The translations under genes were made by a program, and so were the position numbers. Under the pieces are notes generated by a model. That model was not told the origin of the DNA, made no database searches, and was given only the letters and a program-made list of their open reading frames with translations. This document shows, piece after piece, positions 3,645 to 55,560 of a DNA stretch of 64,000 bases (its first letter is position 1; each line of letters starts with the position of its first letter). This stretch comes from a virus (taxonomy: Duplodnaviria > Heunggongvirae > Uroviricota > Caudoviricetes), in IMG/VR virus record IMGVR_UViG_3300031760_000012, positions 33,387 to 97,386 of that record; one strand, 5' to 3'.

Positions 3645-3695
3645 CGATAAAACTACTACGAGGTGGGAGGCTTGTCCTCTCACCTCTTCACATAA

Positions 3696-6600
3696 ATGAA
3701 AGGAGGGACGCTGGTGATTGTCGATTTTCAGACGATAGACATTTACGACAGGCAGCCGACACTGGTCTTGAAGGCGCCAAGCGGCAAGGTCATTCAGACA
3801 CTGGGCTACGCGCACAATATCGAGTGCAGCTTTAACTATAGCGAAACGAGCAAGCTCACCTTTGACCTGCCGGCATATGTAAATGGCGAACCGACACCTA
3901 ATTACGATAAGGTCGTCGGAGAGATGATTATTGACTTGGTCGGATGGGGATTATTCATCCTTCAGAATCCGAGCACAACAAACACAGGCATACAAGAAAC
4001 GAAGTCCTGTACAGCCTATTCGTTAGAATACGAACTGACTCATCGGCAGATGTCTCTTGAAGAAGGCACGTACAACTTTTGGGACTCAGGCGTAACCGCC
4101 GGCGACTCCCCTACCACACTCATGGGTATCATCTTGCAGTATTGTCCAGGCTGGAGTATGGGCGACGTCGACAATGCGCTCATTGGCAAGTACCGTACAT
4201 TCGATCAGATTCAGGATAATGCGTACAATGTCATGATGAATACGCTGCAGGTTCCGTACAACTGTATCTTCTCGTTCGACACATATAAAAGGAAGATAAA
4301 TGTCATCGACGCGAACTCAGACGCTCCGTCCAACCCGATCTTCATCTCGCTGGATAACCTTGCGAAAGAGATCGAGATCAACGAACAGTCAGAGAATCTG
4401 ATCACGGTGCTGGATGTGTACGGCGCAGACGATGTTGATATCAGAGGCGCGAACCCGCTTGGCACGAACAAGATTTACAATCTGGACTACTTTATGAACG
4501 AGGTCCACTTCGACCAAGAGACCATCGACAAATGGAACGCGTGGAAGGATACGTTTGAGCAGAACCGCCAGACGTATTATGATTTGTCGATTCGTCGCGC
4601 TATGAAGACATCTGAGAAGATTGCGCTTCAGGCACGAAAGACCGACGAGGAAGGTGTCCTGTCAACGTACGAGACTGAGCAGGGCGTCAACATCCGTCAG
4701 CTATCGTACGGAGACGAGACTGGCGCGGTTCAGGAAAGACTCGACGAACTCAACGACTTGATCCCACAGCAGCGTGCGACGATTACTGGAACACAGCTCG
4801 AGATCGACGAAGTTCAGTCTGAGCTCGACGATATCCTTGCACAGCTCAAGGAAATCAACGAGGCAACGGCGTTTGAAAGCTTCTTTACGGATGATGAAAT
4901 CGAGCAGCTTCAGCACTACTTCATCGAGAACGCGCTTGAGGAGTCGTCGTTTGCGGTTAATGAATACACATCGTTTTCGGACGAGTCACAGACAGCGGCT
5001 GATGTGCCGATCACGTCGACGGTTACTGGTTCACAGGTAACAACTGTTGATCCGCGCGAAGGAACGAACGAGGAGATCTATTCCTTCATTGACGGCACGG
5101 TTGAGGTGTCATACGGCAGTTATACTGACGATGACGATGTTGAACATCCACGATTTACGATTACCGCAAGCATTAAACGCGGCTCTGCGGAGTTGAACGA
5201 CACGACTGAAGATGACGTAACGACGAGACGCCTGACCGAGACTATCGTCGTCGGCGCAGGGACTAAGACCGACAACAAGGAAAACAATGTGTCGCAGTTC
5301 ATGAACGGCACGCTGATCATCCTGGGCAAGCACGAGTCGACCGAGTCGGACGTTGCAGACACAGAGATCAACGTCATGCGCGAAGGATCGACCTTGACAT
5401 GCTCTGTCTCAGAAGGCGACATGTACCTGACCTCACAGGCGACGCTGTTCGAGCAGTACGACGTCGAGCTGGATCTGTACGAGTTCGCACAGGAAGAACT
5501 GCGCAAGATGGCGTATCCGACGTACACATTCAAGATCGACACATCGAACTTCCTTGCACTGGAAGACTTTAAACAATTTGCATCGCAGCTCTCGTTGGGG
5601 CAGCGTTTATATATAGATATCGGAACAAAAGTACTGGAGCCAATTCTAGTCGGAGTCGAGATGTCATTCGAGGATCTGACAGACTTCTCGCTTTCGTTCA
5701 GCGACACATACCACGGAGACGACAATGCATTCGGACTGGTGGATTTGTTGCAGAAAAGCGTCAGCATGGGTCACAAGCTTGATCTGAGCAAGTACTCGTA
5801 TGGCGCGTATGTAAACAGTGGAGCGAACACAGCGGTAAAAGATTTCATGACTTCTGCATTGGACGCGTCTAAAAACGCCGTCGTAAACGCCGCTAATCAA
5901 GCCGTCAAAATCGACGAGTCAGGAATTCGGCTCAGAAATCCGGATGAATCTGGAGGATTCGACGATGAGCAGATGTGGATCATCAATAACAATATCGTTC
6001 TTACTGATGACGGCTGGAACACTGCAAAGGTTGCGATTGGTCATTTCCATGACGATAACACGGGAGATGGCTGGGGTGTCGTTGCGCCGAACATCGTAGG
6101 AACACTGCTCGCAGGAGAGAATCTGGTCATCGAGTCAAAGAAGGCTGGTGTTCCGGGGAGCTCTGGCGAAACGTCGCTATTCAGAGTCGACGGAGATGGC
6201 GCGTCATTATACAACGCGAAGTTCGAACTTATTACACCACTCGGAGAGACCAGTGATGGCGTTGGTCATTACGGCAATATCGTCCTCGACCCTGAGCTTG
6301 GCATCGGTATCGGCTCGTACTCAGGTGCGTACACGAAGCAAAATGTGACACGGAGAGGTCATTCCGGTCAAGTTGACGGGATTATATTTACATCAGACGA
6401 CGGATCGATCAGAGAGTGGAACTCAGACATTATGAGCGGTGGTCTCAACTCGTACGATGGTAATACGAATTTCTGGGTTGACCTAGATGGCAGTATTCAT
6501 TTCAAAGGAACGCTCGAAGGTGCAGATGGTCAGTTCACAGGATCGCTCAAGGTCGGAGATCCGGATGGATCGCTGACTGGTGAAACGCATGGACTCTATG

Positions 6601-19398: not shown

Positions 19399-19571
19399 TC
19401 AAGGCAGACAGAGTAACCATACGGCGAAATCAGTCCATGAAGAGAAGGAGTTTATAACCCTCCCGTATGGGTAAATGAATGCGCTGACGAGACAGAGTGG
19501 ACGCTGCTTGCATGGCAATATTTTATTGTTTCATACTCGGTCTCTACGAGTAGCGTACGAAAGGAATTTGT

Positions 19572-20672
19572 ATGACAAGCGAACAAAGGCATGCTGCAAG
19601 ACGAAAGCGACGTGAAGAAAAACGCCGCCAAAAGAAAGCTGAATTTATGTTGGATTACGACGATTTCGACAAGGTGTTTACATTTGACCATCTGTACAAG
19701 TCGTATGAAAAATGTCGCAGAAGCGTATCATGGAAATCGAGCGTGCAGAATTATATAGCTCAAGCTCCGCTAAAAGTTAATAACACGTTGAAAGAACTGC
19801 GAGAAGGTAAATTTAGAACAGACGGATTTTACGAATTCGACATATACGAGCGCGGCAAAATCAGACATATTAAATCTGTTACGATGCGCGAACGCGTTGT
19901 TCAAAGATGTTTGTGTGATTACGCCCTCACGCCTGTGTTATCAAGGACGTTCATATATGATAACGGAGCGTCGCTACCAGACAAAGGATACCATTTTTCA
20001 ATGAACAGAATTCAGGAGCACCTGAGAGAATGTGGTCGAGATGGATATATTTTACTTTTTGATTTTTCGCAATTCTTCGATAGCATTCCGCACGATATGG
20101 TAAAGGGCATTATCAGAAACGAATTTACTGATGAAAGGATTGTCGAGTTGTGCGACCATTTTGTCGACGTATTCGGCGACGTTGGACTAGGACTCGGATC
20201 TCAAATAAGCCAAATTCTCGCTCTGGCGGCAGTGAATCGTTTGGATCATTTTGTAAAAGAACACCTTAGAATACGTGGTTATGGAAGATATATGGATGAT
20301 GGTTATCTGATTCACAAAGATAAAGAGTATTTAAAATATTGTTTAAAAGAGATAAAAGCACTGTGTTCGGAACTTGGCATTGTGCTTAATCCAAAGAAAA
20401 CTCAAATCGTAAAAATTAGTCACGGATTCACATGGCTGAAATGTCGGTTCATTGTTACTGATAGTGGCAAGGTGATAAAGAAAATCTGCAAGAATTCGGT
20501 AACACGAGAGAGGCGTAAAATCAAAAAACTTTCAGCTATGCAACAACAAGGAATTGTCAGTATCGAGGATGTGACCGCATCATACCAGAGCTGGCGTGGA
20601 TATGCATCACACTTCGACGCATATCGTACAATCCAAAACATGGATAAATTATTTAAGGAGGAATTCTTATGA
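19572..20672 (+). CDS. DGR reverse transcriptase
   Basis: 366 aa. RT motifs present, including YMDD (RYMDDGYL) and the DGR-characteristic motif-4 variant LGLGSQISQ ([IL]GxxxSQ instead of QGxxxSP). RBS AAAGGAA. Located 170 nt downstream of the TR. Confidence 0.9.
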   Translation: MTSEQRHAARRKRREEKRRQKKAEFMLDYDDFDKVFTFDHLYKSYEKCRRSVSWKSSVQNYIAQAPLKVNNTLKELREGKFRTDGFYEFDIYERGKIRHIKSVTMRERVVQRCLCDYALTPVLSRTFIYDNGASLPDKGYHFSMNRIQEHLRECGRDGYILLFDFSQFFDSIPHDMVKGIIRNEFTDERIVELCDHFVDVFGDVGLGLGSQISQILALAAVNRLDHFVKEHLRIRGYGRYMDDGYLIHKDKEYLKYCLKEIKALCSELGIVLNPKKTQIVKISHGFTWLKCRFIVTDSGKVIKKICKNSVTRERRKIKKLSAMQQQGIVSIEDVTASYQSWRGYASHFDAYRTIQNMDKLFKEEFL

Positions 20673-32836: not shown

Positions 32837-33535
32837 TTATATATGACAGTCCACGATCGTCAGGATCCATTCCGGGTCAGCTGTGTCAATGAATCGCTCG
32901 CGATAGTTTCTATCCCAGTCACGTGCCTCTTCAGGTGTTTCGCTCGACAAACCGAACCAGCCCATTCTACCTTTCTCATGCCACTTTCCGTCAGGCGTCA
33001 CAACTGCGAGCGTATTAAACTCAGAGTTGCGCCGTGCGTAGTCATCGGCAGAATCGTAATATTCCTGATAATATTCTTTCGTGTACCACGTGTTTGCGAT
33101 GTCGTTCATGATGTCGTCCCATTCCACGATGCTTTCGTCGTATATTTCGCGGCTTCCTGCAAAGTCAATATTTTTCACCTTGGCGGAATCGCTATATCCG
33201 GCGAACCATTCTGACACCGTTGTGTACGTCTCGAGCAAGTCACTAAATCTGCCGCCAATACTGTACCAGTCCCATTTACTGTCAGGGTTATACGTTGTCA
33301 AAAGATTGCCATCATCGTCGATCATGTCGTCGTCATACATCGACGCGATCTGATTATAGTAATCTGCGTCGGTCATGTTCGGCTCGTTCTTGTACCGCTC
33401 TTTGCCTTCTTTAATCGCTTCGTCGCGCGTGTACTGAATGTACGGTTCAACCTCGATGTTTTCGTCGTATGGCGCGAGCAACTCATTAATGTCCTGATCT
33501 TCTCTGTGAAATACTGCAACTGCGTAGTGAGACAT
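32837..33535 (-). CDS. hypothetical acidic protein
   Basis: 232-aa ORF with a KWDWYSIGGRF motif; family not recognized. Confidence 0.5.
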   Translation of the reverse strand: MSHYAVAVFHREDQDINELLAPYDENIEVEPYIQYTRDEAIKEGKERYKNEPNMTDADYYNQIASMYDDDMIDDDGNLLTTYNPDSKWDWYSIGGRFSDLLETYTTVSEWFAGYSDSAKVKNIDFAGSREIYDESIVEWDDIMNDIANTWYTKEYYQEYYDSADDYARRNSEFNTLAVVTPDGKWHEKGRMGWFGLSSETPEEARDWDRNYRERFIDTADPEWILTIVDCHI

Positions 33536-35145: not shown

Positions 35146-35703
35146 TTACTCCTCTTTGTACTTAAATTGATAACAGATTTTGCCCCATTGTTCATGTGGC
35201 TGATATTCCGGACACTCGTCCGTATTTTGATGTGCGCATGCGTCGCACTTCAGATCGATGATTCTCTGGTTTGTCGAACCCCTGAATCGCAGCGACACGT
35301 CGCGCTTGTCCTGCTCGAAGCAGCCGTCAACGAGAACATTACACTTGATCAGTAACCGCATCATGTTCGCGTTGGAATATATTTCGTCCAGTGTGAATCC
35401 GGTATAGATCCACACGTTGTCGTTTGGAATCTCGAGTTGCTCCAGAAGTTCGCACACTTCGTAGGCGCTATACATCGGGTCACCGCCAGAGAGAGTGATC
35501 CCACTGAGGAATGGTCTCTTCATGATCTCCTCATTTATCTGGCGGATCAGCTCAGGTGTGACTGGCTCGCCGTTCTCGAAGTCGTGCGTCTGTGGCGAAT
35601 GGCACCCAGGGCAATCGTGTTCACATCCGGAGACGAATAACACGCATCGGACCCCGGATCCATCAGCGAGAGATTCGTAGTCGACTCCACTTAAATACAG
35701 CAT
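35146..35703 (-). CDS. nrdG: anaerobic ribonucleotide reductase activating protein (radical SAM)
   Basis: GVRCVLFVSGCEHDCPGCHSPQTHDF matches the NrdG GxRxxxFxxGCxxxCxxCxN signature; 185 aa. Confidence 0.8.
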   Translation of the reverse strand: MLYLSGVDYESLADGSGVRCVLFVSGCEHDCPGCHSPQTHDFENGEPVTPELIRQINEEIMKRPFLSGITLSGGDPMYSAYEVCELLEQLEIPNDNVWIYTGFTLDEIYSNANMMRLLIKCNVLVDGCFEQDKRDVSLRFRGSTNQRIIDLKCDACAHQNTDECPEYQPHEQWGKICYQFKYKEE

Positions 35704-36204: not shown

Positions 36205-36654
36205 CTATATCAGACCCCTTTCCTTCGCTTCTTTTTGTTTCATCCAGATGTATCCGCCAGCCTTGCGATAGAAGTGCTCCTTGTTCACGACCCAGCTGAT
36301 GCTTTGGTGGTGAACTCCGGTCGCTCTTGACGCAGCACCGATCGACGGATACGTCGCGATGAGGTTGAGGTCACCGTCGAACTGTGCAACGGCGACCCTG
36401 ACGCTTACCTTTGGCGGTTTATGAAGTACTTCAGTGTTGTACCTTATGTTGTACGAACAGTCACACCATTCCAGATTGTCGGCACGGTTGTTCGTCTTGT
36501 CGCCATCTTTGTGATTGACGTATATGAAGTTACCAGGATCTGGATTGTCAACAAACGCTTCTGCGACGATTCTGTGAACTCGCAGCTTTTTGGGCTTGCC
36601 GTCTTTCGTCAGGCTGATTCGCATATACCCGTACGTTTCCAGCGTTGGCTTCAT
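36205..36654 (-). CDS. free-standing HNH homing endonuclease
   Basis: HRIVAEAFVDNP...YVNHKDGDKTNNRADNLEW, an HNH_3-type core; located just downstream of nrdD. Confidence 0.75.
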   Translation of the reverse strand: MKPTLETYGYMRISLTKDGKPKKLRVHRIVAEAFVDNPDPGNFIYVNHKDGDKTNNRADNLEWCDCSYNIRYNTEVLHKPPKVSVRVAVAQFDGDLNLIATYPSIGAASRATGVHHQSISWVVNKEHFYRKAGGYIWMKQKEAKERGLI

Positions 36655-36755
36655 GATTTTTCCAGTGCGGAGTGACTTAATGTCGCCTGCATCGCTTACT
36701 TCGTATAGTCCTTCGTATCCTTTTATTTCCTTCCATTGAATAGCACATCACCACC

Positions 36756-37727
36756 TTACAGCTCGGTGTAAGCACTATGCTTTACACGGTCGTTTGTCTC
36801 GGCATATTTGCCATCGTTAAATCTCCTATAGTCTGCGGTCAGATATCCTGTAACTCGCCTGAGCTGTAATATGTTTTCGCTTCCGCACTCAGGACATCGG
36901 TCGTTAAACTCTCCCTGATATCCACAATCGAGACACGAGTCTATAGGAAAATTAAATGCAAGGTATGGAATATCGAGTTCTTTAAACGCATAGTCTATAA
37001 TATCTTCGACAGCTTTCGTATTGTTTACAAATGTTGAGTCTAGTTCGACATATGTGATGCAACCAGACTTCGGATACTTCGTGAAAGGAGCTTCACATTC
37101 CAGCTTTTCAAAGATGGATACTTCTTCCCATACAGGAACATGGTGAGAGTTTGTCAGATACTCTCTGTCTGTTACATTAGGAATAGATCCGTACTGTTCA
37201 TATAATTTGTTCCTCGCTGTCATACACAAACTCTCAGCAGGAGTCGCGTATGCCGCTCCATTCAGATTATTTCTTTCGCTAAACTCAGCTGCGAACTCTG
37301 CGATTCTTCTGACGACCGCCAGGGCGAAATCATGAATGTCTTTGTTGTGGACATGATTCTCTCCGAACAGCGCCTGACACATTTCTGCGATGCCGATATA
37401 CCCAAAGGCGAAACTGTTATGTTTCAGAGCATCGTAAACAGAATCTTTACATTTGTCGGCGTCAGATATTGTTCCATTCTGATACATAAACGGTGCCGCT
37501 TCAGCAGGTTGCTGTTTCATAATCTCAAAGCGCTCTAGATGCGCCTTTTCAACGAGCTTCAATGTTCTTTCGAGTTCATTCCAGAATCCGTCTAGATCTG
37601 GTTCTTTGCGCTTACCTAAACAGATGCCATATTCTATTCCGAGCTTTGGCAGAATAATCGTGATCGGGTTGTTGTTGCCGCGACCGACTCTACGATATCC
37701 GAGTCCGTTGCGATCATATCCGATCAT
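36756..37727 (-). CDS. nrdD: anaerobic ribonucleoside-triphosphate reductase, exon 3 (C-terminal part with zinc ribbon and glycyl-radical motif)
   Basis: NNNPITIILPKLG..., the CLDCGYQGEF..CPECG zinc ribbon, and the C-terminal RVTGYL glycyl-radical loop. Confidence 0.75.
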   Translation of the reverse strand: MIGYDRNGLGYRRVGRGNNNPITIILPKLGIEYGICLGKRKEPDLDGFWNELERTLKLVEKAHLERFEIMKQQPAEAAPFMYQNGTISDADKCKDSVYDALKHNSFAFGYIGIAEMCQALFGENHVHNKDIHDFALAVVRRIAEFAAEFSERNNLNGAAYATPAESLCMTARNKLYEQYGSIPNVTDREYLTNSHHVPVWEEVSIFEKLECEAPFTKYPKSGCITYVELDSTFVNNTKAVEDIIDYAFKELDIPYLAFNFPIDSCLDCGYQGEFNDRCPECGSENILQLRRVTGYLTADYRRFNDGKYAETNDRVKHSAYTEL

Positions 37728-38533
37728 CGTGCGACACGGGCGTTTCCGCCCAGACTATATCATGGGTGTCTGGTGCACCCCTCAAACGCTTCGACCCAAC
37801 GAGTTTCACGTCAGATCTACTCTACTCAGTTCCGTACCAGAAGTAACCCAGATTCCTCTTCTGGCGGCTTTTCGATAGTCGTTCCACATTCCGCAACATA
37901 ATCAAACACATAATCATAATGATTCTCTATTTCACCCTTCAATATCCTCGCGACCTTATGTCTGTCTACATGCAGGTCTTCTCCTAACGCTCTTATTGAC
38001 GGGTACTCTTTTCTCCAATCATCTTTAATGGCAACCACTTTAGTTCTGTTTTTGTGTGTTCTGTTTCCACTATGCCATCCATGGTATACATTGTATGAAT
38101 TAGTACACCATTCAAGATTATCAAGAGAGTTGTTAAGTTTATTACTATCAATATGGTTTACATATTTATAATTATTAGGATTATCTATAAATAAATTAGC
38201 GAATAACACATGTACTCTTATGTGTTTGCTGTCACCGTTTTCATCTCTTCTGGAAACTTGATAATAACCATCTGTTCCGACAAAAGGAGTCACAATATTT
38301 CCAGTCCTTGAGTTGTAGATGTTAAAATCATCATCTACCAAAAATCCTTTGTATTCTCTTATAAAAACACCCCCATTCGGAGTGTGTGATTATGTTGCTT
38401 AGCACGGCGATTACCATTGCTGGCTCCCCCGTTAGCACAGACACTATCTGTCATTTCCTACAGATCCTTCCGTTGTCTGTACACCCTACATGTGTAGGTT
38501 CGTTTGAGTTTTACATGGGCCGTCGTGTCGATA
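37728..38533 (-). mobile_element. group I intron 2 in nrdD with HNH ORF; the 5' boundary is approximate
   Basis: RNA (minus strand) has the S element GAUAUAGUCUGG followed by the P9 hairpin GGCGGAAACGCC (plus 37739-37763) just before exon 3. An R-like element GUGUACAGACAA lies at plus 38470-38486. The HNH ORF sits between R and S. Confidence 0.6.
37826..38341 (-). CDS. HNH homing endonuclease (intron-encoded)
   Basis: HVLFANLFIDNP...YVNHIDSNKLNNSLDNLEW HNH_3 core; 171 aa. Confidence 0.8.
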   Translation of the reverse strand: MVDDDFNIYNSRTGNIVTPFVGTDGYYQVSRRDENGDSKHIRVHVLFANLFIDNPNNYKYVNHIDSNKLNNSLDNLEWCTNSYNVYHGWHSGNRTHKNRTKVVAIKDDWRKEYPSIRALGEDLHVDRHKVARILKGEIENHYDYVFDYVAECGTTIEKPPEEESGLLLVRN

Positions 38534-39119
38534 TTGACCCATGGTTGCAAAATAAGTATCAGGATCATCCAGATCTTCATGCGCCTCTGACCAGTCGCAG
38601 TTTACAAAGTTCGGATAAATCCGTTTTGCCATTGACTTCAGAGCAAGCTCCTTGAGATCGTAATTCGGATCTCCCTGCTCTGCGTTATCTCCAGATTTGT
38701 ACTGGAATATCGAAATCGGGAATATTGGTGTAAGGTGGAATTTGCCAATTCCTGATATGCTTGCGAGCAACATGTGTCGCGTTACAAATCTTCCTTCCCA
38801 TGTAGTATTTCTTCCACTATTCAGGGACGTAAATGGAACTTGACTTCCAGCTCTACTCTCAAGTGTATTTAAATTGTGGTACAACGCTTCGAATGACTGC
38901 TTCCCCTCGCGCTCGAGCATATCCATCGCATAGTTATAAACTGCCTCGTGCCAGAGATAATCTTCTTGCTTGTAATCCCCAATAGATATATCAGCAGCCT
39001 CTTTCTTATATTTTTCGATCACTTCGTCACTTGCGTTTGCGATGTATTTCAGACCGTCCGCAAAATGTTTTATGAAGCTCTTCCTTACGAATGGGGCAAG
39101 ATCATAGTCTAGATGCCCA
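38534..39119 (-). CDS. nrdD: nrdD exon 2 (central part); its 3' end is approximate
   Basis: In-frame translation from the 3' splice site gives QYGGVASGHLDYDLAPFVRKSF...HNLNTLESRAGSQVPF...GDPNYDLKELAL...YPNF...ATMG, all class III RNR-like. Confidence 0.6.
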
Positions 39120-39522
39120 CTAGCTACACCGCCGTACTGCCAAACTATGTGTGCAGGTGTAGCATGTTACACACATAGCTCCGACTATATCTTCATCCGT
39201 TTATACGGAGATTCGCGCTTCGATTTAAGGGGGTTTCACCCACTGGGAATCACACCCAGCCCTACTCCTATTGCGAGCCAATACCGCCAATGGGATAGTC
39301 TGTTGACGTTTAAGATTGTTCTTTATAAAATCTAAATCCTTTTGTTGAGTTTTGTTTTCCAGTAAAACACAAATTTACATTTCCAATAAAAGAACAATCT
39401 ATTTCGCACAGGATATTTTCTGATCGGCTACATCAGAACCTTCCCCTGTTAGCACCATTACAGGCACACCCCGGTTGTCCGGGTTCACGAATTTTACTTC
39501 TGATCTTCTCAGATCAGTGAGG
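39120..39522 (-). mobile_element. group I intron 1 in nrdD (403 nt, no ORF)
   Basis: Exon 1 ends CAG-GU on a U and the intron ends ...UAGUUUG on a G. R element GUCAACAGACUAUCC (plus 39271-39287), S element GAAGAUAUAGUCGG (plus 39162-39172), then a P9 hairpin. The spliced product reads ...IMQCQSQ-V-QYGG..., in frame with exon 2. Confidence 0.7.
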
Positions 39523-40177
39523 CACTGTTACATACCTGGCTTTGGCACTGCATGATCACAGCAACCTGCTGACATGCTGTCGCCAGATTAGACGGAGGTC
39601 TTACATCACCATTTCTGGTCGTAAATCCCTCAGTTAACAATTTGTGGAAGTCGATAAACAAACAATTATGCTCGCCCACGTTGAACTTATCCAGATCGTG
39701 CTGATAAATGAGACCATCTTTATGCGCTTTTGCGACATCGTACGACATGTTATACTCAAGTGCGATCATCTTCTGAAGATCGGAACTTGCTTCTTTTTCT
39801 CTGCCGGAGAATGACTTTTCGTCCACATTTGCATTTGAGTTCTCCACATTCTTCGCGTCGATTCGCTCCATTACTTTATTAATAATTGCGTTGTTGATCC
39901 CACGCTTACGCGCATGGTCCTCTCTATATAATATGTATGCTTTCGCAACTCTGTCACATCCTGACAGCATCAGTTCCTTTTCTACGGCGTCCTGTATTTC
40001 CTCGACATTTACCATGCCGCGACCTTTAAAATACTCAGTCTCGATTTTTTCAGCGATTTCATTTGCTACGTCGGAGTTCAGGCTTCCTGTATCCGCCATT
40101 GCCTTATTGATTGCTGCCACGATTTTGCTTTTGTCGAAAAGTACTTTTCTTTTTCCATCACGCTTGAGTACTACCAT
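39523..40177 (-). CDS. nrdD: nrdD exon 1 (ATP-cone and N-terminal region)
   Basis: MVVLKRDGKRKVLFDKSKIVAAINKA is an ATP-cone; ...IYQHDLDKF...DVRPPSNLATACQQVAVIMQ follows the NrdD pattern. Confidence 0.7.
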
Positions 40178-50386: not shown

Positions 50387-50461
50387 TGGCACGGCGTAGT
50401 GGAGTCGAACCACTACTTTCTGGGTCAAAGCCAGACGGACTAACCGTTATCCGAACGCCGT
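50387..50461 (-). tRNA. tRNA-Gln (anticodon UUG), CCA encoded
   Basis: Manual fold: acceptor ACGGCGU/ACGCCGU, D-stem GGAU/GUCC, anticodon stem UCUGG/CCAGA with loop CUUUGAC, T-arm AGUGG-UUCGACU-CCACU, discriminator G, CCA; 75 nt. Confidence 0.8.
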
Positions 50462-50464
50462 TAG

Positions 50465-50540
50465 TGGCATACCCTGCAGGGCTCGAACCTGCGACACCCG
50501 GTTTTGGAGACCGGCGCTCTCCCAACTGAGCTAAGGGTAC
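50465..50540 (-). tRNA. tRNA-Trp (anticodon CCA), CCA encoded
   Basis: Manual fold: acceptor GUACCCU/AGGGUAU, D-arm GCUC-AGUUGGGA-GAGC, anticodon stem CCGGU/ACCGG with loop CUCCAAA, T-arm GCAGG-UUCGAGC-CCUGC; 76 nt; 3 nt from tRNA-Gln. Confidence 0.8.
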
Positions 50541-51142: not shown

Positions 51143-53125
51143 TTATGCTACGTGTGCGTACTTTCGGAGCTGGAACCATTTGCCGTCTTTCGTGTATTCC
51201 AGGCATCGTATAACATCATTAGGTTTGATAGGGGATTTATCATACGCACCCTTAAACACGGTCATGCGACCCTCGATCCCAGATCCAATTGATTGATAAA
51301 AGACAGCATAGCCGAAAAGCTTTCCGTCTTTTTTGCGCTTCACTGGCTGGACGTCTTTCACGTACAGGGTGCTCCGATCTGACTGCACTCCCGTCACGAA
51401 CCCGACGTAGCCAGCCACGTCAGCGTAGTTTCTGGCTTTCTCAGCCAGAGAGAGATCTGCTATGTGCTGACTCTTGACAAAGTCTTCAGCTGAACGAGCG
51501 ATTGTTTGGGCGTCAAAACCAGTCCAGCTTACGGATTCTTTGCCTGCTTTGGTCAGTCCATCAGCATGCAACCTGAAAACTTCTTCTATGCCGGCGTCAC
51601 GTGCCTTTTCTTTTCGAATTGACTTTGCGTCGCCGGACTTCAATAGCGTATTATATATGTACATCAAAGCCTCGAGCTCCCGCTGATTCCCGAAGTCGCT
51701 GAAGAAGTCGAGCTTGCGCAGTATGTCCATCTGTCTGGCATCAATATCCGTGTTGGATATGTCCGCCAGAAGATCGACAAAGTAGTTGTAAGTTCGGCTA
51801 TGCGCTAGCTCGTATAAGGTCTCGGCGCACCTTTTCGAAATGAACTTCACACTGGCGACCCCGCGGGAAATAACATTTTCGGCTTTGTTGTACTCGTAAT
51901 GTGATCTGGACAAACCAAATTTTGGTGTTGTCATTTTGATTCCGTATACTTTCGCGAGTTCTGCACCGTTGCGTATATCATCGTCATTGGCGGCTGTATT
52001 CAGATACGCCGTGATGAATTCGCCAGGATAATAATAACGGAAGTATGCGCAGTAATATGTCAACATGGAATAGCTTATTCCATGATTCTTGGAAAACATA
52101 TAAGAAGACGCATCTTCTATTACCTGCAAAAACTCCCTTGCCTCATCTTCTGCGACATCCCTTGGTTTATCTGATTTCATACAGTACCCATCCAATATCA
52201 CAGGGATCCATTCCTTCAGTTTGTCAAGGTTCTTTTTTGCGATAAATCTCCTTACAGAGTCAGCGGAAGATCCGGATAATCCACATATTTTTTGAAGAAA
52301 ATCGATGATTTGTTCTTGAAAAACTAGCCAGGCGTAACTTTCTGACAACATTTCATCGATCTGCTTTGATGGATTATGATTATATTTTCTAGAGAACAAA
52401 GCTTCTCTGTACGATGCTCCAGAAGGTCTGATCGCCGCCGTTACGAGTGTTATGTCATGAACACTCTGTGGACGAAACTTTTTGAGACTATTAAATGCAA
52501 AATCACCTTCGAACTGGAATAATCCAACAGGCGATCTCATCATATCTTCAAAGACCTTCTCGTCGTTCCAGTTGATCTCGTGTGCGACGGGATATGGAAT
52601 TCCTATGGACTTACATGTTGTGTCTATAAGCTCCAAAGTTTTTAATGCAAGAAAGTCGAATTTCGCAAGGTTTACATAATGAGCTGAATTCATATCCAGC
52701 ATCAGAATGTTATCATTGTCCTTCCTGTATGTTCCGTATGTATCAGTCAGTGGGATCGGCGAAATTACGATCCCGGCAGGATGAATGCTTAAGCTGGAAT
52801 ACGTGCCTAAAAGCCCATCGTAGTAATAAAACAGTTCTGGATATTTACTCTTTGTGGCTTCCTCATCTGCTTCGAACTCTTTCTTGATCTGATCAATTTT
52901 CTTTACAGACCAAGGACATTCTGCATCTTCGTTCTTTATAATTCTATCGATACGACTGACCTTCTCCCAGTCCAGTTTGAGAGCTCTCCCGATTTCTTCT
53001 ATAACTGCTTTCGATTTGAGAGTCTGATACGCTGCGACTCGCGCCGTATATCTTTCTCCGAATCTATCAATAATGTATTTAAAAATTCGTGGTCGTTGTT
53101 TTTCTATGCAATCGATGTCGATATC
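51143..53125 (-). CDS. dnaE: DNA polymerase III alpha (DnaE-type), exon 2
   Basis: In-frame translation back to the 3' splice site gives DIDIDC...RFGERYTARVAAYQTLKSKAVIEEIGRAL...SIHPAGIVISPIPLTD...FDFLALKTLE...FSKNHGISYSMLTYYCAYFRYYYPGEFITA, all canonical DnaE palm/fingers motifs. The track ORF begins only at the internal Met at 52702. Confidence 0.7.
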   Translation of the reverse strand, partial: DIDIDCIEKQRPRIFKYIIDRFGERYTARVAAYQTLKSKAVIEEIGRALKLDWEKVSRIDRIIKNEDAECPWSVKKIDQIKKEFEADEEATKSKYPELFYYYDGLLGTYSSLSIHPAGIVISPIPLTDTYGTYRKDNDNILMLDMNSAHYVNLAKFDFLALKTLELIDTTCKSIGIPYPVAHEINWNDEKVFEDMMRSPVGLFQFEGDFAFNSLKKFRPQSVHDITLVTAAIRPSGASYREALFSRKYNHNPSKQIDEMLSESYAWLVFQEQIIDFLQKICGLSGSSADSVRRFIAKKNLDKLKEWIPVILDGYCMKSDKPRDVAEDEAREFLQVIEDASSYMFSKNHGISYSMLTYYCAYFRYYYPGEFITAYLNTAANDDDIRNGAELAKVYGIKMTTPKFGLSRSHYEYNKAENVISRGVASVKFISKRCAETLYELAHSRTYNYFVDLLADISNTDIDARQMDILRKLDFFSDFGNQRELEALMYIYNTLLKSGDAKSIRKEKARDAGIEEVFRLHADGLTKAGKESVSWTGFDAQTIARSAEDFVKSQHIADLSLAEKARNYADVAGYVGFVTGVQSDRSTLYVKDVQPVKRKKDGKLFGYAVFYQSIGSGIEGRMTVFKGAYDKSPIKPNDVIRCLEYTKDGKWFQLRKYAHVA

Positions 53126-54084
53126 CTTTTTGATTGTTTATGTTTTGCAGGAGTAAACACTGCTCTCTCCTCATCCCATCCAAGCGTGTAAATGCGATTC
53201 CATATTGTTGAGCTGTTAACACCCGACAACTCAGACCATTCTTTAACAGTGTGCGATTCTCCATTGATTGTTATTGGACTATTCTTGCTTTTTACCGGTC
53301 TTGTAACAGCATCTTCAATGCTCCAACCTTTATACACCCTTCCTCTTAGTGTCTGTATATTTATGTCGAACCTTTCAGATAACTCTCTTAAAGTGTACTC
53401 TTCCCCTTTGTACGAATACTTTTTATTCAATTCCGCAACAGGAGTTTTTATTGCTTTGTCTGCATCCCACTTTCCTTTAGCGACTCTTGCTCTAAGAGTT
53501 ACTTTTTTAATCCTAAATTCGTCCGCCCATTCACAAGCACTCTTTACCTCTCCATCTAATTCCAATAAAATTGTTTTTTCTTTATTAGTACTTTGTGTTT
53601 TAATATCTACAAATCTGCAATTATCAGGACAATACCCTTTGTTAACGTTTATCCTATCAATAGTACACTCTCCGTAATCTGCATTTTCGTCATACCCGTT
53701 CGAAATAGCCCATTGTTTGAACTCTGAATAATCGTGCAGCCATTCATCACACACAGTTATCCCTCTTCCGCCATATCTTGCATACTTTTGATTATTCGTG
53801 TTATAACATCTTCCCTTCATACTCTCCCAGACATGGTACAATCTGTCATAACTGCCTCCATGTGTTAACGAGTTGGTGTGAATCTTTTCATCACGTAAAC
53901 ACCCACAAGATTTTGTATTACCGCTTCTTAAATTCGAACCTCTGACGTTTGTTATGTTTCCGCATTTACAACGACATTCCCATACTGGGGTTTTAATACC
54001 TGTTTCCGAAACATAGTCTTCAACACGCCTTAAAACAGTAAGTCGTCCAAAAGTTTTTCCGGTTAAATCTTTAAGTTTTCCCAT
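53104..54084 (-). CDS. intron-encoded homing-endonuclease-like DNA-binding protein (Zn ribbon + YxxWxxMxxRC...YGGRGI.VC.EW module + three HTH-like repeats)
   Basis: FGRLTVL...WECRCKCGN...SCGC and YHVWESMKGRCYNTNNQKYARYGGRGITVCDEW. Three repeats of the type EWADEFRIKKVTLRARVAKGKW, as in NUMOD-type homing-endonuclease DNA-binding modules. The last about 7 codons overlap dnaE exon 2 in another frame. Confidence 0.6.
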   Translation of the reverse strand: MGKLKDLTGKTFGRLTVLRRVEDYVSETGIKTPVWECRCKCGNITNVRGSNLRSGNTKSCGCLRDEKIHTNSLTHGGSYDRLYHVWESMKGRCYNTNNQKYARYGGRGITVCDEWLHDYSEFKQWAISNGYDENADYGECTIDRINVNKGYCPDNCRFVDIKTQSTNKEKTILLELDGEVKSACEWADEFRIKKVTLRARVAKGKWDADKAIKTPVAELNKKYSYKGEEYTLRELSERFDINIQTLRGRVYKGWSIEDAVTRPVKSKNSPITINGESHTVKEWSELSGVNSSTIWNRIYTLGWDEERAVFTPAKHKQSKRISTSIA

Positions 54085-54384
54085 ACTTCACCTCCCTTCC
54101 ACGAAACCTTACAACACTCCATGTTTCCATGGAGAATAGACTATATCTTTACTCTATCATTTAAGTCGCAGAGCACTCACCGCTGTCCCATATGGGCACT
54201 TAGTCGTTGAACGTTCTCCTGTTCGGAGCTTCGCTGCTGATTGCCTAATCGACGTCTTTTTCAAGCATTCGCGCTTATCTATATTTCATGATTACGCTGT
54301 AGCAGACGCCGCTCTAAAGGGTTTCCAGCAATTCAATGAGTATTTTTTCGAACGCTTACAGCGACATCAGCGAACGTTGGCAAT
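53126..54384 (-). mobile_element. group I intron in dnaE (about 1259 nt) with an endonuclease-like ORF extending across the 3' splice site
   Basis: Exon 1 ends ...IGKD (GAU) and the intron ends ...AAAAAG. The junction rebuilds the polymerase catalytic motif (xDIDIDC, compare PDIDIDF). P-like GAAUUGCUGGAAAC (plus 54321-54334), R element GUUCAACGACUAAGUG (plus 54197-54213), and S element AAAGAUAUAGUC (plus 54139-54149) are all present. Confidence 0.7.
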
Positions 54385-55560
54385 ATCTTTACCAATCTCG
54401 ACGCGATTTTCATTGCAGAACCTTGAAAAAACTGTCCCCCATATCATCGGATTCACATCTGTGATTTCCGTCAAATATGCGACAAGGCTACCAGCAACAC
54501 TACCGCGTCCAGTACCGATTGCAATATTATTGTTTTTACACCACACTATGATTTCTGACATGAGAAGCATGAATCCGCCCATGCCAACCTTTTTAAATAC
54601 ATTCAGTTCTTCCTGTATCCTATCAACATATTCCTGTTCTTTATCTGGCGGCACGATTCCGCTTTCGAGTTTCTCGTTGAACATCTCCCACGTTTTCTCC
54701 TCAAAGATCTCAGTGTCTCTTTCAGGTGATCCGTTTATGATCGGATATTTAATATCTTCTGTGTTCAAATAAAGCTCTTCACACCACTCATCTAACAAAT
54801 TCGTATTCTCGATCGCCTGCATATAAACTTCTTCTGACAAAGCATCTTGCTTCTTGAACGCATCAACAAGCTGATCGTACGTTTTGTACGTAAGATCAAA
54901 TCCTGATTCGTCATAGTCGATATGTTTTGCTTTTAGAAACATCGTCCTGCATTGAGCTTTGTATTCATTGATCGAATGAGCGTCAGTTGCGGCTATAAGA
55001 GGTTTATTAAATCGTTGTGATAATTCGAAAAGCTTTTTGTTGTACGAAACTTGCTCTGGATTTGTGTGCGGTTGCACTTCGTAGAACGTAAATTTTGCCG
55101 CCAGAAGAGGAAAGTATGGGTTGTTTTCGTCGAGCTTATTGAGCGGTCCTGCAAGACACGCAGACGTAGTTATGATATTGTCGCTTATTTTTAAGAACGT
55201 GTCGAAATCAACACGATTCTTATAGTAAAAATGTTCCTCGTCTGAACTCAGTGCGATCAGCCTATTCAGTTCTTCGACGCCTTTCTGATTCCGCGCGATC
55301 ATAACCGTGTGGTAGTTATCCCTAACCTTTTCGTCAAGCGTTTCCGTGAGGTACATTTCTACAGAATGAAGGTACTTGATCCCTTTCTCCTTGCAGTACG
55401 CCCATTTGTCGACCCAGTTCAACGGCTTCCCATGCTCAGAAATCGAGATCGCCTTAAGCCCTTCGTCGACCGCCGCGTCAATGTAATCCTGAAACTTTGT
55501 ACACGAGTCGAGAATACTCAGATCACTGTGCATATGGTATGGCACATATAATTTACTCAC
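54385..55560 (-). CDS. dnaE: DNA polymerase III alpha (DnaE-type), exon 1 (PHP domain + start of palm)
   Basis: HMHSDLSILDS...ISEHG (PHP) and IGTGRGSVAGSLVAYLTEITDVNP...FSRFCNENRVE (DnaE palm). The ORF runs into a stop 5 codons into the intron. Confidence 0.75.

Follow-up and report, generated by a model that had tools for sequence, protein, structure and literature searches.

HNH-bearing group I introns in phage ribonucleotide reductase (RNR) genes are textbook selfish elements, and several described systems resemble the locus reported here. It lies in a tailed-phage genome (Caudoviricetes), IMG/VR record IMGVR_UViG_3300031760_000012, positions 33,387 to 97,386; we call this whole 64,000-nucleotide (nt) stretch the window and count positions from its first letter. 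The gene in question is nrdD, which encodes the class III enzyme and, among RNR genes, is the one most frequently reported as split in phages (PMC3653736). In T4, nrdD (sunY) likewise contains a group I intron, of group IA with I-TevII, and the T4 order nrdD-mobC-nrdG, with a free-standing HNH gene in the middle, is also that of the window. However, T4 nrdD has one intron and the window two, the T4 intron endonuclease is of the GIY-YIG type, and the insertion site differs: exon 1 of T4 ends near residue ~300 (window NrdD numbering) and the T4 MGCR codons are contiguous. We read that site from the T4 record, as T4 was not among the matches listed in a tblastn search with a 101-amino-acid (aa) junction peptide.

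Other relatives share some features of the locus and lack others. As cited in PMC3653736, Twort nrdE contains two group I introns, one without an open reading frame (ORF) and one encoding an HNH protein, next to conserved functional residues. On that citation it matches the window in all these features, again in the gene for an RNR catalytic subunit, but the Twort gene is class Ib nrdE, and its introns are unrelated in sequence to those of the window as far as tested. The SPbeta bnrdF intron has a 3' domain (P7-P7.1-P7.2-P3'-P8-P7'-P9) homologous to that of intron 1, the first of the two described here, but it sits in a class I nrdF gene and encodes the HNH protein YosQ, whereas intron 1 is ORF-less and has a 5' domain of the intron 2 type with extra hairpins between P3 and P4, unlike the bnrdF intron. 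In Thomasclavelia phage TR-TP1/TP2 (PQ571309; host Thomasclavelia ramosa, gut), nrdD is annotated as two coding sequences with an HNH gene between them; this insertion lies 4 nt upstream of the second junction of the window (ACCAU/...G/GGGUUGU, a slash marking a splice junction here and below), and the intron sequence differs. Finally, jumbo gut (Jug) phages have nrdD in up to four fragments separated by group I introns, with metatranscriptome reads that support splicing (PMC12880540). They resemble the window in their multi-intron nrdD, but are Bacteroides/Phocaeicola jumbo phages, a different group.

We are highly confident that the class III nrdD of the window is interrupted by two IA2-like group I self-splicing introns and accompanied by a free-standing HNH gene. 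Two group I introns had been proposed in the original prediction, made from the sequence alone, and they are supported by covarying RNA cores, homology to the bnrdF intron and the 742-aa NrdD that is restored when they are removed. The three minus-strand pieces of nrdD in that prediction were borne out by ORF listing and translation, as were a first intervening sequence without an ORF and a second with an HNH ORF (Pfam HNH_3). We located the pieces in this way, proposed junctions from conserved motifs, and arrived at the following layout:

39534..40177, minus strand: nrdD exon 1, coding for the ATP-cone and N-terminal part (residues 1-214) and supplying the first two bases of Val215; last bases ...CAG GU; collinear with the intron-less contig L001 to this point.
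39141..39533, minus strand: intron 1, 393 nt, ORF-less, IA2-like group I; terminal G 39141, 5' exon U 39534.
38537..39140, minus strand: nrdD exon 2, third base of Val215 to Gly416; ends AUG GGU; based on translation, alignment and L001 collinearity.
37737..38536, minus strand: intron 2, 800-nt group I intron with HNH ORF, between Gly416 and Cys417 (ATMG/CRT); terminal G 37737.
36756..37736, minus strand: nrdD exon 3, Cys417 to Leu742 plus stop; zinc-ribbon cysteines and glycyl-radical motif RVTGYL.

Removing 39533-39141 and 38536-37737 gives a spliced nrdD of 742 aa, and a public protein search found an uninterrupted natural allele of the same length, 99% identical to it (P0001, contig L001). 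A second intron-less allele (P0002, contig L002) is 83% identical and agrees with the junctions; nrdD is uninterrupted on both contigs. When the window is compared with L001 by BLAST, exactly three collinear blocks result (40458-39533, 39139-38538 and 37737-36196), which abut gap-free in L001 and whose ends match the proposed junctions within 1 nt. The 1-nt uncertainty comes from the codons at the junctions: Val is GUA in L001 and GUG in the spliced window, and Gly is GGG and GGU, respectively. A 1-nt alternative for intron 1 (39140-39532) is compatible with the intron-less allele but lacks the U.G pair expected at the splice site. A different junction 1 (exon end 39530, intron end 39140) obeys the U/G rule but gives 743 aa with QVCQYGG, and we rejected it because the 99% allele has 742 aa and reads QVQYGG.

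These junctions correct several details of the original prediction. Its introns were placed at 39120-39522, said to splice in frame, and at about 37728-38533, but joining the exons there produces a frameshift and stop codons, and the length of 403 nt given for intron 1 becomes 393 nt (39141-39533), fixed by L001. The 5' splice site of intron 2, described as ambiguous, is not so: the junction reads ATMG/CRTMIGYDRNG and places the intron at 37737-38536. The protein echo noticed there (ATMGQYRHDG) comes from translating past the true junction into the first 18 nucleotides of the intron. Exon 3 was thought to begin at ATG 37727, which lies 9 nt downstream of the Cys417 codon; it starts at 37736 (TGT, Cys417).

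Junction 1 thus falls within the Val215 codon (GU/G) and junction 2 between Gly416 and the catalytic Cys417 of the MGCR motif. Aligning the spliced protein with class III RNRs had been suggested as a check, and at the corrected junctions it matches a solved NrdD, 8p23, end to end (residues 2-737, E=3e-117). That alignment is gapless at junction 2 (ATMG/CRT) and has a single-residue gap beside junction 1, a region where the alignment with 9d3x is gapless. The spliced protein also matches the full-length Pfam NRDD model (497.9 bits), ATP-cone (74 bits) and Gly_radical (27 bits), and has the class III features MGC(417)R, CLDCG...CPECG and RVTGYL. Only 6 amino-acid changes accompany the 165 differences from L001 in 2229 exon nt, so the spliced gene is under purifying selection. 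The architecture is no assembly artefact, since a 4.15-kb stretch recurs at 100% identity in two assemblies, made from different samples, and at 99.2% in a third; one of the three may be the window's own source. Megablast of the nrdD locus against phage genomes gave no match.

The second insertion site is used repeatedly. With the intron 2 HNH protein as query we found viral contigs whose nrdD is broken at the same residue; in all of these relatives the exon reads ...AUGGGU/ and resumes /UGU(C or A)G. Altogether, members of the family sit at ATGGGU/...G/UGU in nrdD at 14 other viral loci, representing 10 distinct sequences, some containing an ORF and some not (contigs L005-L008, L006, L011, L031, L035, L047, L063, L070, L095, L102 and L118), and their host NrdDs are 25-50% identical to that of the window. 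L005-L008 and L006 have an intron of the same family as intron 2 at the same site, with HNH ORFs 57-59% identical to that of intron 2; the intron in L011 has a different, longer ORF. The intron 2 ORF is 57-62% identical to ORFs within other introns of viral contigs L004-L008, and the L004 insertion is of a different intron type, a few nucleotides upstream of the intron 2 site. With blastn of intron 2, only the HNH coding sequence matched. Intron 2 is a member of a widespread phage intron family that repeatedly occupies this exact site, and we infer that it spreads by homing.

To describe the family more widely we used conserved single-stranded blocks of the 3' domain as a pattern (GACUAUCGAAA...AGUAGAGUA...GAUAUAGUC), and more than 120 stretches of viral contigs were among the matches listed. 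The 5' domain is shared as well by 20 copies, found in 19 fetched sequences (the window and 18 viral loci). A metagenome scan for the intron 1 5' domain gave no match. In eight contigs (L027, L030, L033, L043, L070, L075, L076 and L102) the 3'-domain motif occurs two or three times within a few kb, which marks them as intron-rich phage genomes. Further nrdD interruptions were seen in L070 (4434-4782, near residue 160), in L004 (~3672-4616, a second break) and in L065 (7196-7489), where a break at 416/417 accompanies a family-type intron located elsewhere in that locus. It seems that nrdD with several introns is common.

The RNA elements of intron 1 were assigned as follows:

39520..39525, minus strand: internal guide sequence GUGCCU (P1), which pairs with AGGU/AU; unconstrained minimum free energy (MFE) fold.
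39486..39492, minus strand: P3 5' strand AUUCGUG, which pairs with CGCGAAU at 39211-39217.
39313..39400, minus strand: P6 extension, a 12-bp helix (AGAUUGUUCUUU with AAAGAACAAUCU) closing a ~64-nt AU-rich loop without an ORF.
39183..39300, minus strand: catalytic 3' domain, P7 GACUAU (39300-39295) with AUAGUC (39188-39183); P7.1, P7.2, P3' and P8 (UCCGU with ACGGA) between them.

Those of intron 2 are:

38514..38520, minus strand: internal guide sequence GCCCAUG (P1), which pairs with exon CAUGGGU, with U.G at the splice site.
38501..38508, minus strand: P3 5' strand CUCAAACG, which pairs with CGUUUGAG at 37781-37788, across the ORF.
37893..38398, minus strand: P6 extension, an 11-bp helix (GCAACAUAAUC, 38398-38388, with GAUUAUGUUGC, 37903-37893) that loops out the ORF.
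37826..38362, minus strand: HNH ORF (HNH_3); first canonical start TTG 38341 (171 aa), stop at 37826.
37737..37880, minus strand: catalytic 3' domain, P7 GACUAU (37880-37875) with AUAGUC (37758-37753), P7.1, P7.2, P3' and P8 (GGGUG with CACCC).
37751-37738, minus strand: P9 (GGGCG-GAAA-CGCCC), directly before terminal G 37737.

Both introns have a U at -1 paired with a G of the guide sequence (the U.G wobble of P1) and a terminal G (omega-G). RNAalifold on the 5' domain of the relatives, given sequences only, recovered P1, a hairpin after P3, a second bipartite hairpin with a conserved AGGAAAUG loop, and P4, with 22 of 34 pairs compensatory; on their 3' domain it recovered P7, P7.1, P7.2 and P8, with 19 of 25. 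In each of the 14 introns examined, which have 10 distinct 5' strands between them, the long-range P3 reaches 7 or more consecutive pairs and links the two domains across the ORF. With strands taken by alignment-based extraction, non-cognate combinations of P3 5' and 3' strands average 3.85 pairs and only 3.6% of them reach 7. We also made unconstrained single-sequence MFE folds, replacing the ORF loop of intron 2 with GAAA. For both introns these show P1, P3, both extra hairpins, P4-P5, a long P6, P7.1, P7.2, P8 and P9, with P2 in intron 1 only (z-scores -4.4 for intron 1 and -6.1 for intron 2). P5 and P6 were read from the sequence and appear in these folds, and the intron 2 P6 extension, also read from the sequence, is kept in the fold of the ORF-deleted core.

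The P7.1 and P7.2 hairpins between P7 and P3' are present and covary, as in IA2 introns. What sets this subfamily apart from textbook IA2 is one or two extra hairpins between P3 and P4, laid out as AA, a covarying hairpin, GUGU, an optional second hairpin (the bipartite one described above) and GCUAA. The original prediction correctly quoted the R and S motifs of intron 1 and, for intron 2, the S motif and the GGCGGAAACGCC hairpin. In contrast, the R-like GUGUACAGACAA that it named in intron 2 consists of two other elements, the conserved GUGU linker and, from the second peripheral hairpin (ACAGAC paired with GUCUGU), the 5' strand. Taking GUGUACAGACAA as the P7 of intron 2 would leave P3-P6 no room upstream, and the family comparison shows a linker and hairpin strand. 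ACAGAC with GUCUGU was also tried as the P4 of intron 2 and dropped after comparison with intron 1 and the relatives, in which P4 is ACGG with CCGU, then GCUAAG.

For intron 1, the 3' domain has described homologues. By blastn, nt 224-351 of intron 1 (R to S) are ~73% identical to the annotated SPbeta bnrdF intron and to introns of AR9/PBS1 and Staphylococcus phages. Aligned block by block with bnrdF, AR9 and three metagenomic introns, this domain yields P7, P7.1, P7.2, P8 and P9, with 13 of 27 pairs compensatory. The P6 loop of intron 1 occupies the position of the endonuclease gene in relatives and is weakly similar to the 3' end of the ORF in L031.

The 3' end of the HNH ORF contains the true R of intron 2 (GGAACGACUAUCG; GUGGAACGACUAUCG; P7 strand 37880-37875). 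The ORF is therefore not inserted between R and S, as had been claimed, but looped out of the P6 extension, and its last 78 nt (26 codons) overlap P6', J6/7, P7 and P7.1. It matches Pfam HNH_3 at 30.1 bits (cut-off 24.8), and an I-HmuI-type NUMOD-like domain scores 18.4 bits, below the cut-off of 27. A putative hairpin that would sequester the ribosome-binding site of the ORF (ACACUCC paired with GGGGGUG) has a similar counterpart in two homologues, with weak fold statistics (z = -2.0, -0.8 and +0.3).

These elements suggest how the locus would work. Each intron would fold after transcription, with P1 presenting the last exon U in its U.G wobble and P3-P8 and P7 forming the guanosine-binding core. 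Exogenous guanosine would attack the 5' splice site, the freed exon would attack after the terminal G, and the exons would be ligated into an mRNA for the 742-aa NrdD in which the catalytic Cys417 codon becomes the first codon of exon 3. The I-HmuI-like HNH protein looped out of P6 would cut intron-less nrdD alleles, and double-strand-break repair would then copy intron 2 into the cut gene.

Comparison with L001 also suggests how intron 1 arrived, as the exon sequence around junction 1 contains a sharply bounded patch of differences:

39068..39569 (39569-39534 plus 39140-39068), minus strand: co-conversion tract in the exon flanks of intron 1, 109 exon nt with 24 differences from L001.

This patch corresponds to spliced nt 609-717 (-36 to +73 around junction 1) and is bounded by 128 and 111 nt of perfect identity (binomial P=1e-13 given the rate in the rest of exons 1-2). 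Of the 24 differences, 23 are silent, and in one place a serine codon has gone from UCG to AGC. At the tract sites the outgroup L002 agrees with L001 at 13 and with the window at 4, so the window tract is the foreign one. Exon co-conversion during intron acquisition by double-strand-break repair is established for T4 (PMC2988022), and the tract has the signature of this process. Intron 1 would then have arrived with its 109-nt exon patch by recombination from a more divergent nrdD donor, the route being the conjectural part. The original prediction had placed possible co-conversion at intron 2, but there is no spike of differences from L001 at junction 2, where only two positions differ (GGG/UGC versus GGU/UGU), flanking the insertion point. 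Further into exon 3, beyond ~70 nt from junction 2, divergence from L001 is ~11%, compared with 3-4% in exons 1-2 outside the tract. This stretch, from the same comparison, is:

36756-37416, minus strand: higher-divergence stretch of exon 3, spliced nt 1321-2229.

The step in divergence suggests a further recombination boundary inside nrdD.

Downstream of nrdD lie two genes on the same strand:

36205..36741, minus strand: free-standing HNH gene (NUMOD4, HNH_3 and NUMOD1), between nrdD and nrdG and outside any intron.
35146..35703, minus strand: nrdG-like activating enzyme (radical SAM/Fer4_12), the partner of nrdD; intact.

The free-standing protein matches NUMOD4 (59.1 bits, cut-off 23.4), HNH_3 (30.4, cut-off 24.8) and NUMOD1 (24.2, cut-off 22.8). 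The original prediction was right to place a third HNH gene here, but its start (36205-36654, 100 nt past the nrdD stop) was not: NUMOD4 lies mostly upstream of ATG 36654, the frame is open back to a stop codon, and the upstream extension is kept in L001, where 4 of 5 differences are synonymous. The gene most likely starts at the non-canonical ATT 36741, which lies 14 nt past the nrdD stop and at 6-nt spacing behind a strong Shine-Dalgarno sequence, GGUGGUGA. By its domains and its arrangement, as in T4 nrdD-mobC-nrdG, it is a putative free-standing homing endonuclease. Both HNH genes lack a canonical start where domain or homologues place it (ATT 36739-36741 and ATA 38360-38362, minus strand), which could serve to hold endonuclease expression down or reflect early decay. 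L143, the third assembly of this phage, matches the window exactly in both introns and in exons 1-2, and 25 of its 27 differences fall within the region of the free-standing gene (36339-36755), which may be a recombination hot spot.

Two broader proposals go further than the evidence above. One is that introns 1 and 2 represent a structurally distinct, abundant and largely unannotated phage IA2 subclass, defined by the P3-P4 insertion and repeatedly targeting the catalytic-Cys codon of NrdD; we consider this unlikely. Less likely than that is mobilisation of the ORF-less intron 1 in trans by the neighbouring free-standing HNH endonuclease. The intron-less L001 has the same HNH gene beside its native, uncut intron 1 site, which argues against this site being the target.

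Several observations weigh against our interpretation of two self-splicing introns, one of them gained with its flanks. P7 (GACUAU with AUAGUC) is invariant in the alignments, so that covariation neither supports nor contradicts it. At the gathering score, a scan of the whole window with Rfam RF00028 found no group I match in nrdD, and a permissive scan scored intron 1 at only 21.2 bits (E=0.029; the cut-off is 50) and did not report intron 2. The intron-less allele by itself leaves the junctions to ±1 nt. For intron 1, the choice between gain together with its flanks and loss by a patch depends on one outgroup, L002. In the intron 2 ORF, AUA (38362-38360) stands where homologues have AUG, and the TTG 38341 start has a poorly spaced Shine-Dalgarno sequence; with its AUG missing, the endonuclease may be weakly expressed, or the gene may be decaying. 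Finally, it is from sequence that we infer splicing itself, as well as the activity and the targets of the endonucleases.

The Rfam result can be explained. At its gathering score RF00028 misses five ORF-less members with the same 5' domain (L118, L035, L070, L057 and L065), yet L133, which has an intron 1-type 3' domain and a standard 5' domain, reaches 74 bits with it. The negative result therefore reflects a limit of the model and not of the sequence: both introns are missed because the subfamily has extra hairpins between P3 and P4. Scanning with Rfam group I models, which the original prediction had recommended as a check, would thus have been misleading, with intron 1 below threshold (21 bits against 50) and intron 2 unreported.

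One alternative is that these are group I relics, at least one of which no longer splices, and that nrdD is a pseudogene. The lost AUG of the intron 2 ORF, an intron 1 ORF that was lost or never present, and splicing that is itself a deduction all fit this idea. However, the exons are under strong purifying selection (6 amino-acid versus 165 nucleotide changes relative to L001), all core helices are intact in both introns, an identical allele occurs in several independent samples and nrdG is intact downstream, so we judge it highly improbable.

Alternatively, nrdD might be a split gene that is never spliced, its three pieces being translated separately and assembled after translation, as reported for the Aeromonas phage Aeh1 NrdA that is split by mobE. 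Such cases exist (PMC3653736, PMC7344957), and exon 3 does contain the in-frame ATG 37727. A product from that ATG would nevertheless be without the catalytic Cys417, junction 1 falls mid-codon (GU/G), exon 2 does not open with a start codon (the first one in the ORF listing is a GTG 118 nt inside), and both intervening sequences contain full covarying group I cores. Separate translation consequently has only a very slim chance of being correct.

Inteins, which are known in phage RNR genes (PMC3653736), or an assembly chimera can be dismissed, as the insertions are out of frame with the exons and full of stop codons, a Pfam scan did not find intein domains, and identical DNA occurs in assemblies from different samples.

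Elsewhere in the window there are other RNA elements. Rfam reports another group I intron at 54117-54421 (92.7 bits), within 53100-55560 (minus strand), where it splits a PHP/DNA polymerase III alpha-like gene just ahead of the catalytic DIDID motif. The polymerase frame resumes at ~53125 (KDIDIDCIEK...), so the intervening sequence is ~1.3 kb, and it holds a 326-aa ORF (53104-54084) without a Pfam match, downstream of the Rfam-matched core. An Rfam RT-2 RNA motif lies at 19399-19578 on the plus strand (104.9 bits, gathering score 40), and two adjacent tRNA genes lie at 50390-50540 on the minus strand (Rfam 63 and 61 bits).

Split and multi-intron RNR genes have been published, so the locus belongs to a well-known class, to which it adds members. 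As HNH group I introns in phage RNR genes are textbook elements, the general picture is unchanged. What the locus offers is a natural before/after pair, in which a 99% allele fixes both junctions to ±1 nt. The sharply bounded 109-nt tract around an endonuclease-less intron is direct sequence evidence that an intron passed recently from one phage nrdD to a divergent one. The Gly416/Cys417 boundary appears to be a recurrent homing site across very divergent phage NrdDs, with a second intron type inserted 4 nt away.

There is also a warning for annotation. Because this subfamily falls below the RF00028 threshold, pipelines call three fragmentary nrdD ORFs in place of one gene, and the gene calls on public contigs do show fragmentary nrdD ORFs, as expected from undetected introns. 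If the P3-P4 insertion is undescribed, many phage introns are being missed, and the insertion would be a new peripheral element to study.

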